Assembly (NCBI GenBank): GCA_013239625.1
Contig: MU053792.1
Span: 73,618 to 137,617 of the forward strand
DNA from: Lama guanicoe
Lineage: Eukaryota
DNA length: 64,000 bases
Reading direction: 5' to 3'
A program made the translations under genes and the position numbers. Positions within the stretch are counted from its first letter, which is position 1. Every line of letters begins with the position of its first letter. Below are positions 10,193 to 64,000 of this stretch, piece after piece. A model generated the notes under the pieces. That model was not told the DNA's origin. It did not search any database and was given only the letters and a program-made list of their open reading frames with translations.

Positions 10193-10350
10193 CCATCAAA
10201 CAGATTACTGAATAAACTTCACTTCTCCATTTTTCTGTTTGTCTAATTCCCACTTAACTTTGGTGGTTCTACCATCAAACAGATTGCTGAATAAATTTCA
10301 CTTCTCCATTTTTCTGTTTGTCTAATTCCCACTTAACTTTGGTGGCTCTG
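10193..10350. repeat. Two-copy 79-bp tandem duplication
   Basis: 'ccatcaaacagatt(a/g)ctgaataaa(c/t)ttcac...ttggtgg(t/c)tct' starts at 10193 and again at 10272; about 4 substitutions. Confidence 0.95.
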
Positions 10351-12239: not shown

Positions 12240-12538
12240 TTCTAATAAATCTCTTCCTATTGGTGAAAAAGGGAGCATCTTCCTTTAAATTCTCCTAAGT
12301 AAAATTCTAAAGGTAATGACTTAAAAACTTTAATCGGCACATTAGAAACTGCCACTATTTGCACTGAAGTATTACACCGAGGGAGGGAGCCTTCGATTTT
12401 GGTACGGTTTAAAACTGAAAAGGTGGCTCCTGTGTTTATTAGAGCCTTAACTGGTTCTCCCCGTACCTTTATTTCTACGTTCCCCAGAGTTAAAGAGAGA
12501 CGGGGAAAGACTCCGGGTGCTTCCTCAGAGCAGCCCTG
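12240..12538 (-). pseudogene. pro: Retroviral aspartic protease, catalytic Asp replaced by Asn
   Basis: ORF 12257-12580: VEIKVRGEPVKALINTGATFSVLN (canonical LIDTGA); C-terminal GRDLLE motif in a shifted frame at ~12241-12258. Confidence 0.88.
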
Positions 12539-13952
12539 TTTTTGTTTAATTTGGGATTCTGGTCTGAAATCTTCCTTCATTTTTCTGCAGTCCTTTTTAT
12601 AATAGCCTGGTTTTGTTTGTTTGTTTATTTTTTTAACAGTAAAATCAAATGTTAGATGTCTTTGTCAGTAACAGTAAAATGTTAGATGTCTTTGTCAGTC
12701 ATAGATTAGGCGGGGGTTTGTTAATTATTGACTCACCTTGATTACTTAATTAGCACAATTGGTGGTCCATAATTTTTCTAGATGTATTCCTTTCTTTCCT
12801 TCTAATGGTTTTGGAAAGTTGATCAGCCATTGTGACAAGGGCATTTGTATATAATGCAGACCAACTTAACTTGTCTTTTAATTGGAATAGCCAATTCTTC
12901 ATCTACGCCTTCTAAAAAGGCAGAGTTAAGTAAAGGATCATTTTGATGGTTAGAGGATGACTCACGTGTCATACCTGAATCTTGTTTAAGAGTTTTTTTT
13001 CAAACCTCTAAGGGTAATCTGAAATTGAATCATCTAGCCTTTGTTTGCATTGTTGAATAACCAATCTATGGCTTTTGGAAGAAACTCTGGGATAAATTGA
13101 GTAATTTATAGCTAATTCTTTGCCTTCAGCTCAAGCCTGCAGGCTATGCAAATCAAAAATCCATTAAGGGGTCATTCTTTCCTGCTTTTCCTATTGATGC
13201 CTTTGCTTTACTTTCAGAAACTACTAGCTGTATTCACTGATGTTAATCTGAAAACCCAGGATCTTAGGTTCAGATGGTTAGCTCAAATTCCTTAGCAAAT
13301 CCTATGGGATCTTGGCTAGGTCTGAGAAATTCCTTAGCTAAAGCTCTAAGTTTTGCTTGGGCCCAGGGTGTATATGTAAGCACCAAAGATGGTTTGCCCC
13401 TTTCCATAATGGATTTCTCCTTAAAGGGAGCTATGATTACCTCTGATTTTATGTCTTCCTTTCCTGGGGATGGGGAAGGAGCAGGAGGTGAGGTTGATGG
13501 AAGAGAGAGAGAAATAGTCTCTGAATTAGGCAGTTCAGATGATACAGGAGGAGCAGAGGGAGAAACGGGGTTAATGCTAGTGGCTTTTTAAAAAAAAAAT
13601 TCTGATGTCATTTGAAGCAACCTTTTGTTGATTTCCTGAAGTTACTTTATCATTTCCTCTTTTAGAGGCTTCTAAATGCCAATCAAAATAAGCATTCTAT
13701 TCAATCTGTTTGATCTTACAGCTGGCTTTTTCTAGCTATGTACGCAAAGAAAAAAAAAGTTTTGGAATATCAAAAGAGCCCCAGTTTGGCCATTTTAGGC
13801 TGAGATCTCCTTTAGTACAGTTTCCCCAATCAAATAAATATTTGCAAGTGTAATTTCCATATGTATTATACATGATCCTGGCTGGGGTGTGTTAGTTGGA
13901 GGCTGGCAATCTGTTGTTCCTTTTTCTTTGGTTTGAAAATTTTATTCCCCAT
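12539..13952 (-). pseudogene. gag: ERV gag, disrupted
   Basis: Minus-strand ATG at 13952: MGNKIFKP..(fs)ARIMYNTYGNYTCKYLFDW..DLSLKWPNWGSFDIPKL..AYFDWHLEASK. Pro-rich stretch at 13470-13570 and a degenerate CCHC knuckle (FYC..KPGYYKKDCRK) near 12585-12645. Many stops and frameshifts. Confidence 0.8.
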
Positions 13953-25210: not shown

Positions 25211-28200
25211 GGGGAGATCGGCCAAAAGGATGGAGCCGAAAGGTCCTGAGCTCACATCCTCTCATGAGCACACACAACTATCTACAAAACAACCATTGTT
25301 AAAAAAATAAAGACTGGAATCTACCAGAAAAGGTATTCTACAACTAAAGACATAAAAAAGGAACCAAAATGAGATGGGTAGGAGGGACAGACAGATGATG
25401 CAATCAAGACCCATATCTTCAAGTGGGGGTACCCACAAACTGGAGAGTAATTACACTGCAGAGGTTCTCCTACAGGAGTGAGAGTTTTGAGCCCCACATC
25501 AGGGTCCCCAGCCCAGGGCTCCTGCACCGGGAAGACAAACCTCCAGAGAATTTGGCTTGAAAGGCCAGCAGGACTTAATTTCAGGAGCCCCACAGAACTG
25601 GGGAAAATAGAGACCTCACTCTTAAAAGGCAAATATAAAACCTCACATACATTGGGACCCAGAACCAAATAAGTAGTTGAACAAAAGTCTGGCCAGATCC
25701 ACCTGCTAGTCTTGGAGAGTCATCCAGAGAGACATGGGGTGATTGCAGCTCACCCTGGGGACATAGACGTTGGTGGAAGCCGTATTTGGGAATGTTCTAC
25801 ACAGTGAACACTGCTTCTGTTGGCTGCAATCTTAGGATCCACACTTTAGTTCATTATTAGCATCAAGACCTGACCCCAGGCAACAGCTTGTAGGTGCTGG
25901 TGCTGGGACGCCTCAGGCTAAACAATTAACTGGGTGAAGACATAGTCCCACCTACTCGCAGACAGGCTGCCCGAAGCTCCCTGCGCCCATGGCAGCCTCC
26001 AGACATACCCTTAGACATGGGCCTGCCCAGCAGAGCGACAAGACCCAGCTCCACACACCATTGGGTAGGCACAAACTCTGCCTTCCAAGAAGCCTGCATT
26101 AGCCCCTAGACCAGGCTCACCCATCAAGGGGAAGAAACCAGACACAAGAAAACCATATCTCGTGGCCTATGGAACTAGTCCACCCACAGCAGGCCAGACA
26201 CTTCCCTGGGACCAGCCGGGCCTTAGCCCTGTCCTGTAGCAGGCCAGCTCAAGCTTTGTGACCCCAGGACCCATACCCAATTGTGTCCGAAACCACCCCC
26301 ATCGATGATCTGAAGTGAGCTCTGGGATCCCCGAGCCCTGCAGCCAGATTTCAGGAACCAGCACTGCCTGCTACTCCCAGGATCTGGCTTCACCCTCCAG
26401 TGGTGGGCAACAGCCCCAGAGTGTTCAGGACCCTGATTCTACCCATGAGTGAGCCAGCACTAGACCCAGGGCATGTGGAGTTCATACAGCCAGGCTCCTG
26501 GTGACCAGGTCCCACTAAACAGCAGCCAGCAGCATTTGCACAAGGCGCAGCCTGGCAATCAGTTGAATTAGAGGCCAGCCAAGCTTATCAGGCTGCCTAA
26601 CTAGTCAGCCTGCAACAGCAGAAGGATTCTTAAGAGAAACCCCTAGAGCAAATATCTTGGGTGATAAGAGGAGAGTGTACTGCTTGGACTCATAGGAGGA
26701 AAGAAGTGTTATACTTCTCAACCTTGGAGACACTACATAACCTGCCACATCCCTAAAAACACAAATAGCAACTTATATTACATGTGGCAGCAGAGGAACA
26801 TATTCCAAGCAAAGGAAAAAGATAAGACCCCAGAAGAAGAACTAAGTGAAGTGCAGATAGGAAATCTACCTGAGAAAGAGTTCAGAGTAATGAATGCAAA
26901 GGTAATCAAAAGGGTCAAGGGAAGAATGGATGCACAGTGTAAGATGTTAGATGCTTTTAACAAAGGGTTGAAAATACGAAAACAACCAAACAAAGATGAA
27001 GAATAAAATAACTGAAATGAAATATACACAAGGAGGAATCGACAGGAGACTGAAAGATACAGAGGAAAGGATAAGTGAGCTGGAAGACAGAGTAGTGGAA
27101 TCACTTTGTTCTGCACAGAAAAAAGAGAAGAAAAAAGAAAAGACAGTTGAAAGTTCTCTGGTACGACATCAGGTTCACCAATATTCACATTACAGGGTTC
27201 CCAAAAGGAGAAGAGAGACAGACAGGGTGTGAGAAAATATTTGAAGACATAACACTGAAAAATCCTCTAGCCTGGGAAAGAAAGGAGTCAGCCAAGTTCA
27301 GGAAGGCCCATGCAGAATTAACCCTAAGAGAAACATGCCAGATACATTGTGATTAAAATGACAGAGACATCAAAGTTAAAGAGAATATTAAAAGCAGCAA
27401 GAGAAAAGCACCTAATAAAAGACAGCAGAACTCCCACAAGGCTATCAGATGATTTTTTTTTAAGCAGAAACTCTACAGGGGAGAAGGGAAAGGCATGACA
27501 TTTCATCTCTAGAGACACACACAGACTGAAAGTGAGGGAATGAGAAAAAGATATTTCATGCAAATGGAAATCCAAAGGAAGCCAGAGTAATAAACTTTTG
27601 TCAGACAAAATAGACTGTAAAGTAAATATTACAAGAGACAATGAAGGACACTACATAATGATCAAGGCATTAGTACAAGAAGGTATAACAACTGTAAATA
27701 TATGCATCCAAGATAGGAGTGTCTCAATTTATAAGGCAAACGTTAACAGACATGAAAGAAGATCTCAAGAGTAACACAATACAATTAGGGGACTTTAATA
27801 TTCCGCATTTGTGGGAGTGCATGATGGGATTAACAAATTGTAACAGACCCCAGCTGCCTGTCAACTTTAAGAAGAACAAATGTGCTTAGGAACTGCTTTG
27901 CAAGCAGGCACGTTTGTGTCCACACTCCTGTCTCCTTGCCATAAAAAGCAGAGACAATGCCTTGCTTGCGTAGTTGAGGTTTTAGATAGCACTCTGCTCC
28001 TTGCAAAGCAACGACCCAGGCCCTCAGCTAAACGCTGGGCGTGCCTGCTGTTAGATAGTCTATTATCCCCAAAAAGGCTGGGCTGCTGCTCTGTAATTAG
28101 CGTATCTAAAGAAAGTACCTTGTTCCCCTCTGCCCTTGTCTTCCCTAAAGATAAACCAAGACTTTATGCTCATTGTGATTTCTACAATCTCAATCCCATC

Positions 28201-30912
28201 CTGTCTTTCCCTAAATTCCTGCATTCCATCACACAACTGTTAAGCATTTTTCCTTTGATTGTACACAATAAATGTGGGAGCATTTGAGAGGCTGGTGGAG
28301 TCAGCTCCCGACTCCCTCTCTCTCTCTTGACTTTTCCACAGAGTTTCAAGTAATTCATTCTGTCTCGGTGGGACTTCTGCTGGCCAGAACCCACACACTT
28401 ACATCAATGGACATGTCATCCAGACAGAAAACCAGTAAGGAAACCAACACTTAAATGACACATTAGGCCAAATGGACTTAATTTATATCTATAGAGCATT
28501 CCACTCAAAAGCAGCAGAATGCACATTTTTTTCAAGTGCACATGAAACCTTCTCCAGGATAGATCATATGCTAAGGCACAAAACAAGCCTCTATAATTTT
28601 AAGAAAACTGAAGTCATATCAGGCATCTTTTCTGACCACAACACTATGAGACTAGATATCAACTACAAGGAAGAAACTGCAAAAAACAAAAACACATGGA
28701 GGCTAAATAATATGCTACTAATCAACCAATGGATCACTGAAGAAATCAAAGAGAAAATAAAAAATACCTAGAGACAAATGAAAATGAAAACATAATGATA
28801 CAAAGTCTATGGGATGCAACAAAAGCAGTTCTAACAGGGAAGTTTATAGCAATACATGCTTACCCAGGGAACCAGGAAAATCTCAAGTAAACAGCTTAAC
28901 CTTATATCTAAAGGAACTAGAGAAAGAAGAACAAATTCCAAAGTTAGTGAAGGAAAGAAATCATAAAGATCAGAACACAAATAAATGAAATAAAGACTAA
29001 AAGATCAATGAAACTAAAAGCTGTTTATTTGCAAAGGTAAACAAAATTTATAAAACTTTAACCAGACTCATCAAATAAAAACAAAAAAAAAGCATGAGAA
29101 AGAGAGTCCAAATCAATAATATCAGAAATGAAAAAGAAGTCACAACTGACAGCACAGATAAATAAAGGATTATGACTACTACAAATAAGTGTGTGCCAGT
29201 AAAATGGAGAACTTATAAAAAATTTACAAATTCTTAGAAAGGTACAATATTTCAAGACTTAACAAGGAACAAATAGAAAATATAAACAGTTCAACTACCA
29301 GTAATGAAATTGATTCAGAAAAATTTGAATTAAAAAACTCCAAACAAAGTCCAGGACCAGATGGCTTCACAGGTGAGTTCTACAAACATTTAGGGAAGAG
29401 TTAACATCCATCTTTCTGAAACTATTCCCAAACATGGCAGAGGAAGGGACACTTCTGACCCCATTCTGTGAGGCCACTATCACAATGAAACCAAAACCAG
29501 ACAAAGATATCACAAAACAGAGAAAATTATAGGCCAATATCACTGATGAGCATAGATGCAAAAATCTTCAAGGAAATCTAGTATATAGACTCCAACAATG
29601 AATTAAAAGGATCATACACCATGGTCAAGTTGGATTTATCCCAGGGCTGCAAGGATATTACAATATCTGCAAATTAATCAATGTGATACACCGCATTAAC
29701 AAACTGAAGAATAAAAACCCTATGATAATCTCAATAGATGCAGGAAAAAAACTCGACAAAATTCCACTTCCATTAATGTTAAAAAAACTCTCCAGAAAGT
29801 GGGCAAAAAGGGAATATACTTTAACATAATAAGAGCCATATATCTCCTAAGACAAAGGAAATAAAAGCCAAAATAGGAAAATTGGACCAAATTAAACTTA
29901 AAAGTTTTGCACAGCAAAGGAAACCATTGACAAAACAAGAAGACAACCTACTGAATGGAAGATATTTCCAAATGATTTGACTGATAGGCAGTTAATATCC
30001 AACATATATAAACAGCTCATACAACTCAACACCAAAAAAGTAAACAACTTGGTTAAAAAATGGGCAGAATAGCCTAATAGACATTTTTCCAAAGAGAAAA
30101 TACAGATGACCAACAGGCACATAGAAAGATGCTCAACATTGCTAATCATCAGGGAAAAGCAAATCAAAACCACAATGAGACACCACCTCAAACTTGTCAA
30201 AATGGCCATCATCAAAATGAATACAAATAACAAATGTTGGTGAGGATGTGGAGAAAAGGGAACCCTCCTACACTGCTGGTGGGAATGTAATTTGGTGAAG
30301 CAACTGTGGAAAACAGTATGGAGGGTTCTCAAAAAAACTAAAAATAGAATGACTGCATGGCCCAGCAATTCCACTCCTGGGTTTATATCTGAAAAACACA
30401 AAAACACTAATCAAAAAGATACATGCATGCCAATGTTCCTAGCAGCGTTATTTACAATTGCCAAGATATGGAAGCAACCTAAGTGTCCATCAACAGGTGA
30501 AAGGATAGTGAAGATGTGGCATATATACACAATGGAATGGGACTCAGCCATAAAAAATGACAGAAGTTTGCTGTTTACAGCAACATGGATGGATCTGGAG
30601 GGCGTTATGCTAAATGAAATATGTCAGGCAGAGAAAGACAAATACTCTATGACATCACTTATATGTAGAATCTAAAAAAATACTACAAACTAGTGAATAT
30701 AACAAGAAAAAATCAGACTCATAGATGTAGATATTAAACTAATGGTTACAGTAGGGGGTATGGGCAATATGGGGGTGGAGGGGCAGGAGGTGCAGACTAC
30801 GCGGCTACATGGGTATATTCTACAACATGGGGAATATAATATTTGAATTAAAAAACTGTAAATGGAGTATAACTTTAGAATTGTATACAAATAAAAATCA
30901 AAATTAAAAAAG
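25211..30912 (+). mobile_element. LINE-1 retaining 5' UTR, ORF1, ORF2 and 3' UTR, with two internal deletions and an LTR insertion
   Basis: GC-rich 5' UTR from 25211; ORF1 start MWQQRNIFQAKEKDKTPEEELSEVQIGNLPEKEFRV at 26782; EN domain TFFSSAHETFSRIDHML; C-terminal WHIYTMEWDSAIK; A-rich tail at ~30890-30912. Consensus jumps at ~27502 (ORF1 into EN) and ~29843 (RT into C-terminal region). Confidence 0.93.
27810..28395 (+). mobile_element. Solo LTR, probably class II (beta-like), inserted in the L1 endonuclease region
   Basis: Perfect inverted termini TGTGGG...CCCACA; AATAAA at 28267-28272; L1 'ggggactttaatattc..|cacttacatcaatggac' resumes across it. TSD is imperfect. Confidence 0.8.
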
Positions 30913-59649: not shown

Positions 59650-61640
59650 AGATTAACATACTGAAACCTGTTGCGTGTCTCTACACGAACAATGAAATAT
59701 CAGGAAAAAAACAAACAATTCCTTTTAAAATTATATAAAAATTACCTGGGAATAAACCTGACCAAGATGATGAAAAACCTATAGGTTGAAAACTATAAAA
59801 CATTAATAAAGGAAATTGAAGATGATTCAAAGAAATGAAAAGATATCCTATTTTCTTGGATTAGAAGAATTAATATTGTTAAAATGGCCATACTACTCAA
59901 AGAAATCTACAGATTTCATATAATCTCTATAAAATTATGAAGAACATTTTTCACAGAACTAAGAAAAATAATCCTAAAATTATACGGAACCACAAAGACT
60001 CAGAATTGCCAAAGCAATCCAGAGGAAAAAGAACAAAGCTGGAGGTCTAACCCTCCCAGGCTACAGACAATATTACAAGGCTAAAGTAATCAAAACAGCA
60101 CTGTATTGGCACAAAAAAACAGTCATATGGACTAATAGAACAGAATAGAGAGCCTAGAAATAATCCCACACAATTATGATCAACTAATCTTTGACAAAGG
60201 AGGCAAAAATATACAATGGAGAAAAGACAGACTCTTTAGGAAGTGGCGTTGGGAAAGATGGACAGCCTCACGTAAATGAATGAAGTTAGAACTCTCCATC
60301 ACATCGTACACAAAAATAAATTCAAATGACTTAAAGACTTAAATATGGCGTGACACCATAAAGAAGAAAACTTAAGCCAAATATTCTCGAATGTAAATCA
60401 TAGCAATGTTTTCTTAAGTCTGTCTCCCAAGGCAAAAAAACAAAAACAAAAATAAACAAATGGGACCTAATCAAACTTAAAAGCTTTTGTGTAGCAAAGG
60501 AAACCATCAATAAGACAAAAAGACAACTTACGGGCTGGGAGAAAATATTAGCAAACAATGTAATCAATGAGGGCTTAACTTCCAAAATATACAAACTTCT
60601 CATAGGGCTCAGTTAAAAAAGAAAATCAAAAAGTGGACTGAATATCTAAATAGACATTTCTCTAAAGAAGACACAAAAGAAGCCGTACAGATGGCCAACA
60701 GGCACATAAAAAGATTCTCAATACAATTTATTAGTAGAGAAATGCATCAAAACTACAGTGAAGTATCGCCTCACACCATTCAGAATGCCCATCATCAAAA
60801 CATCTACAAATAATAAATGCTGGAGAGAGTGTGGGCAAAAGGGAACCCTCCTACACTGCTGAGGGGAATATAAATTGGTGCAGTCACTTAGAGAACAGCA
60901 TGGAGGTTTCCTAAAAATATAATAATAAAATAAAATAAGAATAGAGCTGTCTTATGACCCAGCAATCCCACTCTTGGACATATATCCAGAAAAGATAAAA
61001 ACTCTAATTTGAAAAGATACATGCACCCCAATGTTTATATCAGCACTATTTATAATGGCCAAGACATGGAAAAAAATCTAAGTGACCATCAATAGATAAA
61101 TGTATAAAAAAGATGTTTTTATTTATATATAAATATAATGGAATATTACTGAACCATAAAAAATGAAATAATGCCATTTATAGCAACCTAGAGATTGTCA
61201 TACTAAGTAAAGTAAGTCAGACAGAGAAAGACAAACTTATATGCGGAATCTAAAAAAAAAATAGTGATTCAAATGAACCTATTTACAAAACAAAAATGGA
61301 ATCACAGTCATAGTAAACAAATTTATGGTTACCAAAGGGGAAAGTGGTGGGGAGGGATTAATTAGGATTTTGGAATTAACTGTTACTCACTACTACATAT
61401 AAAATAGATTTAAAAAAAACCAAGGATCTACTGTATACCTGTATATCACAGGGATCTATATTCAATATATTGTAATAATCTATAATGAAAAAAATCTAAA
61501 AAGAATATATATATGCATATATACATATACATATTGTACATATATATACACATATGTATGTATAACTGAATCATTTTGCTGCACACCTGAAAGTAACAAA
61601 ACATTGTAAATTGACTATACTTCAAGTTAAAAATAAAAAA
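59650..61640 (+). mobile_element. 5'-truncated LINE-1 (ORF2 C-terminal half plus 3' UTR)
   Basis: 'gaagaattaatattgttaaaatggccatactac', 'gacccagcaatcccactc', 3' UTR ending 'gactatacttcaagttaaaaataaaaaa'. Confidence 0.92.
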
Positions 61641-61674
61641 GATATGATTTCCTAAATTCATTGTCTTGTTTCAT

Positions 61675-62598
61675 TACCTAGCATGTGATCTAATGTAAAG
61701 AATTTTCCATATGCAGTTGAAAAAAATATCCATTCTGTTGCTTTTGGAAGGAATGTTCTATATATATCTCTGCTGAGTTCATTCATCTATTGTGTCCTAT
61801 AAGGCCAGTGTTTCTTATTGATTTTCTGTCTAGATGATCTGCCCATTGATATAAGTGGTGTGTTGAAATTCCCTACTATTACTGTTACTGACAATTGCTC
61901 CCATTATGTTTATTAATATTTGGTTTATGTCTTTAAGTGTTTCTATGTTGGGTGCATGTACAGTTACAAGTATTATATCTTCTTGAATTGATCCCTGATA
62001 TCATGTAATTTACTTCTTTATCTCTTGCAACAGTTTGTTGTAGTCTATTTTGTCTTGTGTAAGTACTGCTACCCCAGCTTTCTTTTAATTTCCACTTTCA
62101 TAGAATACCTTTTTTTATCTCCTTATTTTCAGACTGTGTGTGTTTTTATATCTGAAGTGAGTCTCTTGCAGACAACACATACATGGGTCTTGTTCTTGCA
62201 TCCATTCAACCACTCTACATCTTTTGATGGGAGCAGTTAGCCCATTTACATTTAAAGTAATTATTAATATCTATGGTCTTACTGCTATTTTGTCAATTGC
62301 TTTTGTGTCATTTTTGTAGGTGTTTTTGTTTCTTTCTTCTTTTGTTTACTTCTCTTGTGATTTGATGACTATCTTTTAGTGTTATGTTTGGATTTCTTTT
62401 TCTTTGTGTGTGTATATCTTTTGTAGATTTTTCATTTCTGGTTACCATGAGGTCTGTATTAACAATCCATATACATTACCAATTGTTTCAATTTCTGATC
62501 TCTTAATTTCAAATGCATTTGCTACTTTTGTCTTTTAACTTTCCTACTAGCTTGGAGAGTATATGGATGAGTTTCTCCCTTTCCTATATATGCCTTTA
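61675..62598 (-). mobile_element. Antisense L1 fragment (ORF2 endonuclease plus inter-ORF region) abutting the EPV
   Basis: 'ttgattttctgtctagatgatctgcccattg..gtgttgaaattccctactatt', 'tttatatctgaagtgagtctcttgcagac', ending 'tatatatgccttta'. Confidence 0.88.
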
Positions 62599-63451
62599 TG
62601 GGCACTAATTTCCTTGAGGTGCCAACCTACCAAAAAATAGGCAAAGACAAATATGGGGAGAAATATCTAAATTATGAGCCTGAAGTTTTTCAGAGAATGC
62701 AGGAGTTTGCAAATGCAGCTGCTATATCTGAGAATGCCAAAATCTCGATGAGAGCAAAACCACAGCTGAATTCTTTGTGGAAGGGGTGAGAAACTATTTG
62801 CACCCAGGAACCTCATGGACAGAGCAACTTTAATGATGTGACCATGAAAGTCACCAAGGACGCTTCCCTGATTATGTCATGGAGGGAGGGAACAGACAGC
62901 AGTCCTTTGATTATATGGACCAAGGAAAATGGGACCAACTCAACAGATTTCAACTCTGCCACCACAGCAGGCTGTGTCATGACCCTGCAGATCTCACCAA
63001 CCATCATCCTGGAAAGCCAAGGCCTCCTGTTTGCAGGAATTCAACCTGGCAATGTACAGATGGATCCAGATATATATTTGTGGGGCCCTACATGGGCTCA
63101 AGTTCCTCATGTAGATGGAGTATTCCACCCTACTCCTAACATGGGGGGTTTGGGTGTCATCGACCCCCCTCCAATGATTCTAATAAAAAATACTGCCGTG
63201 CCAGCCGAGCCCTGGAAAGCATTTACAGCAGGCCCTAGTCTTTCATTAATCAGTACTCCACAGGACAGGTTACAGGAGAGATGGAGTGGGAGATTGAAGG
63301 AAAAAACAGTAAGCACTGGAATCCAGAGATTCAATACACCGGTAATTACGGTCCTAACAAGGACACAATGAATTTTACCGTAGATGGGAACGGGAAATAT
63401 AATGGGAGTCCCCAGTTTGCTAGAACCAGGTTTCTGTCAAAACACTTGTGA
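62598..63451 (+). pseudogene. cap: Endogenous dependoparvovirus (AAV-like) capsid gene fragment, roughly AAV2 VP1 residues ~452-735, three frameshifts
   Basis: ORF 62838-63371 contains GIQPGNVQMDPDIYLWGPTWAQVPHVDGVFHPTPNMGGLGVIDPPPMILIKNTAVPAEP (AAV2: [59 protein letters not shown]). After a frameshift at ~63238 the frame from 63239 reads [70 protein letters not shown], stop at 63449-63451 (AAV2: [37 protein letters not shown]...[25 protein letters not shown]). Upstream segments YQKIGKDKYGEKYLNYEPEVFQRMQEF and EFFVEGVRNYLHPG are colinear with the AAV GH loop. Confidence 0.97.
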
Positions 63452-63532
63452 TAAAAGTATTATGTTTCAGATTTTGGTGTCAGTATCTTTATTTGAAATT
63501 TCCCTTTATCTCGCTGGTTGATTTCGGTGACC

Positions 63533-64000
63533 TGTGCACTGAAGAGGGCGGGGCAAGGGCGTTGCATCAGCCAGAAGAGACTAACCGGAAAGACAGGAAA
63601 CTGGAAGCAGAAACGAGCATCAGAGTAGGAGGGGGAGGGGCTTTAGCAGGAGGAGCTAGGGTTAGGGGTAACCTCATGGAGTAGGTGTGCCATGGGTGTG
63701 TACGCTCTGTTTTTCTGCAAATAGTTACACTTTAGGTATGCCTCGGAGAGGAGGGAGCTCAGGGTTTCTCTACCTTGACATCTTTGCCTATCTTTCTGCC
63801 CCTTGCTTTTTAAAGCGAAACAGAAGGATGTATGTGTGTGCGTGGGGTAGGGAGAAGAGGTTCTGATTGATCAAAAATACTATGATTTCTTTGGAAATGC
63901 GGCTGGGAGGAGAATTATTTATTGTTACTGGTTATACCCATTCATCCCCTGCTCCTTGGGCTGGCAGGACACAAAGCTTTTGATTTTCTTTCTCCCTACA
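63533..64000 (-). mobile_element. Probable ERV LTR directly 3' of the EPV (left boundary uncertain, may extend to ~63463)
   Basis: Minus strand begins TGTAGGGAG at the window edge and has LTR-like composition ('tgctaaagcccctccccctcc..ctcttcagtgcaca'); a minus-strand AATAAA lies at 63488-63493. TSD not checkable. Confidence 0.45.

Follow-up and report, generated by a model that had tools for sequence, protein, structure and literature searches.

A broken half of a dependoparvovirus capsid gene shared by several related mammals

Here we describe a broken dependoparvovirus capsid gene fragment, found in a window of 64,000 nucleotides (the whole stretch of DNA that was analysed), which with a probability of about 0.85 lies in the germline of several related mammals, likely camelids, and is likely decaying there without function. 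The element, located at about 62586–63451 of the plus strand, represents the C-terminal half of the gene (VP3), closes at the natural stop at 63449–63451 and covers about residues 450–736 when aligned with the AAV6 capsid P0081. Its four pieces are separated by three frame breaks, and the ~285 codons along the chosen path contain no stop. We regard it as an ordinary capsid fossil, to which a link with uncultured capsids and antisense cDNAs are added.

An ancestral germ cell would have captured viral DNA, presumably long before the living species split. The C-terminal cap half now stands alone in the window, with rep and the first cap half absent and the left end adjoining a truncated LINE-1. 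Point mutations and the three breaks would have accumulated afterwards; of these, breaks 1 and 2 together with most point changes came before a split of ~4%, the amount of decay being an estimate. As it stands the locus gives no capsid protein because of the breaks and the missing half. The features are as follows.

61660–62553, minus strand: LINE-1 fragment, ORF2 start and part before it, 71–73% identical to the copy at 27499–28587; its truncated end adjoins the viral piece
62586–63451, plus strand: endogenous dependoparvovirus capsid gene fragment (Parvo_coat and PDB matches, colinear alignment)
62586–62735, plus strand: piece 1, short VR-IV position and the conserved stretch preceding VR-V (13 of 27 columns identical to P0004)
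62736–62755, plus strand: frame break 1, located only to within this range; contigs of organisms C and G are gapless across it
62756–62807, plus strand: piece 2, short, in another frame, the strand after VR-V (from frame scoring)
62808–62812, plus strand: frame break 2; contigs of organisms C, F and G are gapless across it
62813–63234, plus strand: piece 3, divergent VR-VI to VR-VIII (median identity 14%), then conserved core and HI loop (median 54%)
63235–63240, plus strand: frame break 3; gapless in organism C, outside the contigs of F and G
63241–63451, plus strand: piece 4, last strand, VR-IX position and C-terminus (median identity 51%)
62609–62944, minus strand: antisense-read stretch of two barcoded cDNA molecules from run X20 (organism G), 5′ ends at 62861 and 62944
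63452–64000, no strand assigned: right flank with no detectable terminal repeat; X17 contigs cover 63561–63990

The capsid fragment and its surroundings

Homology of the larger pieces is direct. The frame 62790–63368 matches Pfam Parvo_coat with an E value of 1.3e-11 and the frame 63239–63448 with 5e-05, which is under the curated cut-off, while searches of PDB with pieces 3 and 4 returned AAV capsids (79 and 93 sequences, best E 8e-23 and 7e-19, respectively). For the remaining parts a profile was used, built from the last 330 residues of 112 dependoparvovirus capsids; 116 had been gathered and four were dropped, two as synthetic (P0103, P0105), one as short (P0114) and one as aberrant (P0116). 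Piece 1, which on its own has neither a Pfam nor a PDB match, reached 11.5 bits against this profile (E 9e-06 as a single comparison) with the best start at 62586. Piece 2 and the first half of piece 3 alone gave −0.9 and 1.6 bits, which is not significant. The positions of VR-IV, V, VII, VIII and IX, taken from an excerpt of PMC3906578, all fall inside the range of the element.

The preliminary description had located the capsid half at 62598–63240. The place was right, but similarity begins at ~62586 by the profile and the element continues to 63451. The spacing from PG to GIQPG, described there as colinear with AAV, is nearly so, at ~80 codons against 83–87 in the 5 of 8 homologues in which it was measurable. 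Absence of the RGNR motif, also pointed out there, is true and uninformative, as none of the 116 gathered homologues has it. The longest open frame of the element codes for 193 aa, there is no intact ORF of at least 300 aa, and the N-terminal barrel strands of the capsid are missing from the half gene. No match to Rep, VP1u or the N-terminal half of VP was found anywhere in the 64-kb window. Colinear VP homology is present in this endogenous dependoparvoviral element, with no Rep match in the window and no terminal repeat detected in the right flank. The element is flanked by host DNA and is common to several individuals and organisms (contigs of C, F and G; 16 runs).

On the left side the minus-strand LINE-1 fragment has a weak endonuclease match (E 0.0027), and its boundary near 62553 was placed by what we take to be likeness to L1. 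No continuation of this fragment is visible on either side within the window. At 59650–62553 two LINE-1 pieces of opposite strands abut, with the 3′ end of the plus-strand one beside the minus-strand fragment. On the right side, comparison of the flank with both ends of four dependoparvovirus genomes gave scores reached by 19–199 of 200 shuffles, and neither a hairpin (z −0.98) nor a copy elsewhere within the window was detected. CpG is less depleted at 63500–63720 (0.49 vs 0.19 window-wide), and the same stretch holds what we assume to be GC-box-, ETS- and NF-kB-like motifs. A host promoter or enhancer at this place might be the source of the antisense reads discussed below.

Elsewhere in the window, a remnant of a retroviral aspartyl protease (12260–12664, minus strand; Pfam RVP, E 7e-05) marks an endogenous retrovirus fragment, and a 79-base unit is present as a tandem duplicate with 96% identity at 10193–10349. 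Repeats with at least three copies are LINE-1 3′ ends only, with no SINE family seen; we presume that the absence of a multi-copy SINE is compatible with a camelid host. Searches for Rfam families and tRNAs returned none. Among 249 scanned frames no member of the PNRC2, RIDA or caspase families was found at E 0.01, a scan in which short exons are missable. These frames comprise 245 of the 248 of at least 60 aa, the other three being capsid frames, together with four shorter L1 frames.

Decay, surface loops and antisense reads

There are 58 columns in which at least 95% of the 112 capsids agree, and in 15 of these the element has another residue; stricter thresholds give 9 of 44 (99%) and 6 of 34 (100%). 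Living capsids at the same 58 columns show a median of 0 differences, with top counts of 3, 4, 4, 4, 6 and 13. Of these 15 changes, 13 lie a single base away from the conserved residue; 7 count as non-conservative and 5 as conservative, while 3 are found in some living virus. In the six changed fully invariant columns the residues are absent from every living capsid in the set. Neutral decay of living capsid genes, simulated at 8, 10 and 15% base change, altered 15.5, 18.6 and 25.8% of residues. We estimate the post-insertion decay at ~8–15% of bases, with the best compromise near 10%, and likely about one residue in five or six has been altered since insertion. At this level 2.3–4.1 stops are expected and the probability of zero stops drops from 0.13 to 0.013 (150 simulations per level, three codons being hidden at the breaks). 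There is a mild tension here with the decay estimate: the stop-free state is somewhat lucky, or else part of the difference is truly viral.

It could be argued on this ground that the copy is only lightly decayed (about 4–5%), its loops being essentially viral and its differences mostly true viral divergence. A path of ~285 codons with three breaks only and no stop would agree with that, the probability of zero stops being 0.33 at 4% decay, as would the loops being in register, the 5 conservative changes and the 3 that occur in some living virus. Also the living sequence P0115 differs at 13 conserved columns, so that a deep viral lineage is possible. We nevertheless consider light decay unlikely, as at 4% the simulated chance of at least 15 changes in 58 conserved columns is <0.0001, almost all the changes are single-base ones (13 of 15), nearly half are non-conservative, and 6 of the 34 fully invariant columns carry residues unseen in living capsids.

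The heavier decay bears on the surface loops. The preliminary description held that variable regions IV–IX of an extinct virus are recoverable, and suggested that failure of the loops to thread onto the VP3 fold would speak against it. The element does span the variable-region positions and the loops are in register with capsids, since for the divergent stretch 62811–63032 none of 300 shuffles attains its score. Recoverability is a different matter, with 15 of the 58 near-invariant columns changed. Identity of the loops to living capsids has a median of 14–17% and is ~22% at best, and by our estimate 15–25% of loop residues are host-era changes. The surface loops of the extinct virus are therefore likely not readable directly from the element, being in part host-era noise: no outside sequence shows which loop residues are original, and orthologues do not allow the host-era changes to be removed, as most of the decay is older than their split. 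The predicted structure of the largest unbroken piece, 142 residues consisting of loops without the barrel, reached a pLDDT of 30.8 alone and 62.3 with 76 homologues; as is to be expected of loops that lack the barrel, the model superposes on no capsid. A Foldseek search with this model had no match at E 0.001, the best value being 0.074; all 49 matches listed were AAV capsids, with TM of 0.23–0.34 and rmsd of 8.5–14.6. Capsid loops of endogenous dependoparvoviruses were already modelled, and proposed as a source of vector loops, for whale, bat and rabbit, in an excerpt of PMC7474932. Our estimate of decay cautions that what looks like 'divergent loops' in fossils of this kind is in part host mutation, beyond repair by orthologues from a young radiation.

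The age of the decay can be judged from relatives. The window differs from organisms G and F, the most distant relatives in the data, by 3.6% and 4.5% in the element and by 3.1–4.6% in the right flank. Since these relatives are only that different and have breaks 1 and 2 in common with the window, most of the decay predates their split; ~2% per lineage is estimated to postdate it. Substitutions since the split look neutral. Synonymous changes were 4–5 of 12 in X20 (expected 3.4–3.5) and 3 of 7 in X17 (expected 1.9), P 0.25–0.46, on 12 and 7 sites only and contigs of depth 2–4, which gives little power. The dN/dS-type comparison among orthologues proposed earlier thus gave a neutral-looking synonymous share, as by chance, within this small number of sites. 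The earlier argument that the frameshifts speak against a coding gene holds good: there are three breaks, two of them old and common, and the substitution pattern is neutral. Neither the open frame nor the purifying selection of a co-opted coding sequence was found, given the three breaks and a synonymous share at the chance level.

Two single-cell cDNA molecules appear to have been read from the opposite strand. Both X20 contigs end in 39 loose letters, opening with the 10x 5′ switch oligo in reverse complement. In the 10x 5′ layout 16 barcode, 10 UMI and 13 oligo letters precede the RNA in its own strand (excerpt of PMC11349216), and the tails fit this layout, so that the two molecules represent a minus-strand reading, antisense with respect to the capsid gene. 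The sequence of the switch oligo and the strand-invasion artefact are described in a passage of bioRxiv 10.1101/2023.04.17.536840; the genomic letters next to both cDNA ends are unlike the oligo. Among the 24 runs listed no RNA run is on record. Background or read-through transcription is the likelier source of the two molecules, which we treat as a lead only. If real and regulated, the antisense RNA would join the few expressed parvoviral elements, of which none is listed for camelids.

Retention of the piece for host use, whether selection first acted on it as a capsid fragment or it now serves as a template for antisense RNA directed at related viruses, would account for the zero stops, improbable at the estimated decay (0.13 to 0.013), and for the two minus-strand cDNA molecules with ends unlike the oligo; X17 contigs, which may or may not come from RNA of this strand, are present here as well. 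However, breaks 1 and 2 are old and common, the changes since the split look neutral, two molecules of one run with differing 5′ ends fit background or read-through transcription, and the catalogue of such elements (PMC9707805, Table S4) gives no expression. We find host use distinctly unlikely. A wider scenario, in which the element is a fossil of the living lineage P0001–P0005 and dates that lineage to more than 20 My, selection for a host capsid fragment kept the frame free of stops for some time, and a right-flank promoter now drives antisense transcription, perhaps of an antiviral RNA, should be given slightly less credence still. We therefore return to a piece which is likely decaying without function.

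Reading frame and inheritance of the breaks

The four-segment, three-frameshift and stop-free path was proposed in the preliminary description, and the order of its segments is confirmed here, with the middle frame scoring best. The first break, put there at ~62755, exists; its position is fixed only to ~62736–62755, as the top 15 placements lie within 1 bit. Breaks 1 and 2 offset each other, and hence the real rival is a single frame with a stop at 62787. Frame paths were scored with X at breaks and stops over 6593 placements. The whole-length score was 230.7 bits for the excursion into the middle frame and 223.0 bits when the first frame was kept with its stop; the best excursion into the third frame gave 227.3 bits and contains a stop. 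The value of 230.7 is a best-of-many figure, and for this reason shuffle tests were added. Compared with the corresponding stretch in the 112 capsids, the middle piece scored 7.3 and the other two frames −5.0 and −1.7. Shuffles, taken as the best of three frames, matched 7.3 in 0 of 1000 cases with 25 random capsids and in 15 of 1000 with the 8 nearest. The stop-free path requires three frame changes, and all 500 shuffles require at least four. Taken alone, the middle piece misses its right position in the profile, so the support for frame 2 is good, not overwhelming. One frameshift and one premature stop, with the first frame running on through 62755–62810, would replace two events by a single one and lies only 7.7 bits lower in the whole-length test, but with −5.0 set against 7.3 in the stretch itself, and so few shuffles attaining the latter, such a path is highly improbable.

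The element was then followed in sequencing runs. Of the 24 listed, 16 DNA runs with five organism labels (A–E) hold 0.92–1.00 of the sampled words, five of them 1.00; six of the 16 carry a mark as possible sources of this DNA and ten do not. Small word shares were noted in runs X18 and X19. Contigs were sought in four runs, of which X16, X17 and X20 gave them and X10 gave none. The 3925-base contig of X16 (organism C, depth 12) covers 62614–64000 with 3 substitutions and a sole gap at 63439, and being gapless at all three breaks it places breaks 1, 2 and 3 in organism C. X16 shares a study with a possible source run, yet its sequence differs from the window. The X20 contig (organism G) over 62609–62861 has 10 substitutions and is gapless, and therefore has breaks 1 and 2 in common with the window; that of X17 (organism F) over 62747–62902 has 7 substitutions and is likewise gapless, which makes break 2 common. 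The evidence from X20 and X17 consists of single contigs of depth 2–4, and support for break 3 comes from X16 and the word shares. Breaks 1 and 2 are older than the split from the ~4% diverged relatives.

The question raised earlier, whether the indels are shared by orthologues or are assembly errors, is in this way answered in favour of inheritance, by all three breaks in X16, breaks 1 and 2 in X20 and break 2 in X17. That the frameshifts are assembly errors in an open capsid frame can be practically dismissed, as the X16 contig is gapless over all three breaks, those of X20 and X17 are so over breaks 1 and 2, and five runs contain 1.00 of the words, and no supporting point was found. Two details of organism C (X16) may be added: the one-base gap at 63439, near the end of the capsid piece, indicates that decay is continuing, and at 62613 one of its two alleles equals that of the distant organism G (X20).

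Living relatives and catalogued elements

The element nests among dependoparvovirus capsids in a 55-row tree of 172 conserved columns, which includes dependoparvoviruses only, is rooted on those of reptiles and has a bootstrap not fully settled. It groups with P0001–P0004 (99/90) and then with P0005 (99/89); the enclosing larger group holds duck AAV, rat AAV and the AAV-Po1 group, with AAV3B/6/13 and the goose-type P0033 outside. Its end branch is 1.05 against a median of 0.16. AU tests on a 28-row tree rejected a clade with P0033 (p 0.0065) and with the Po1 group alone (0.009) and retained one with primate AAV (AAV3B/6-type) capsids (p 0.07); in this smaller, quickly built tree no starred group contains the element. 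The nearest capsids are thus the uncultured dependoparvoviruses P0001–P0005, with a placement unsure given the long branch, and the donor virus was likely of a lineage which has living, uncultured members (P0001–P0004). If true, the link would set a minimum age for that capsid lineage.

P0001 (QKN88754.1), P0002 (QKE54951.1), P0003, P0004 and P0005 form the supported group with the element and include the top match in piece 1. They are living and intact, unlike the broken element. P0004 has the highest overall identity to it, 38%, where unrelated AAVs have a median of 34%. These five sequences fall in clusters of 1–2 members each, are sister to duck AAV types in the tree and apparently have no solved structure among the PDB matches listed. 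In the 27 columns of piece 1, 13 are identical to P0004, 9 to AAV-Po1 and 4–5 to four primate AAVs. The claim that the sequence resembles AAV5 more than AAV2 is borne out in its direction (AAV-Po1, P0009, which we take to be AAV5-like, 9 vs 4–5), while P0004 is closer kin and AAV5 and AAV2 themselves are outside the protein set. With the AAV5-type (AAV-Po1, P0009) and primate AAV capsids the element has the same conserved core, at about 50–57% identity in conserved pieces.

The locus is probably EPV-dependo.23-Camelidae, already catalogued; host and site are inferred, and the identity rests on the host pattern. About 80 dependoparvovirus insertions have been catalogued (excerpt of PMC9707805), and Table S4 of that work (Campbell et al. 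2022) gives dependo.23-Camelidae in five species as 'Lemuria', at PNRC2/RIDA and 11.7 My, without an intact ORF and without expression. In an extract of Table S1 of PMC12719739 it stands at human chr11:104.77 Mb, in the PDGFD-CASP12 interval, with a minimum age of 20.56 My, and in an extract of supplement 1 of PMC11089739 this age is 20.9 My. It is the sole camelid dependoparvovirus element in the extracts of the three sets of tables (PMC9707805, PMC12719739, PMC11089739). A search of main texts found no paper on a camelid dependoparvovirus element, so that it is known to us from supplement tables only. EPV-dependo.23 is family-wide in five species; here the element has five near-identical organism labels and two ~4% apart. 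Both lack an intact ORF, the longest frame here being of 193 aa. The table gives no expression, whereas here there are two antisense cDNAs.

As to 'Lemuria', which on a Rep tree has its place within the viruses of waterfowl (excerpt of PMC9707805), grouping of the capsid with the goose-type P0033 was rejected; the label is Rep-based and no other Lemuria element is in our tree. Capsid genes are widely exchanged between AAV lineages, according to a passage of PMC12358894, and such exchange may be why the Rep-based label and the capsid tree disagree.

Most endogenous parvoviral elements are fragments, as stated in a passage of PMC9707805. In the excerpt of PMC7474932 (Hildebrandt et al. 2020), the whale, bat and rabbit elements have, as here, a frameshifted cap common to orthologues and a short VR-IV as in AAV5. 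They are near full-length with rep, and their cap carries 4–16 frameshifts and mostly several stops, whereas the element described here has only half of the gene, broken three times and free of stops.
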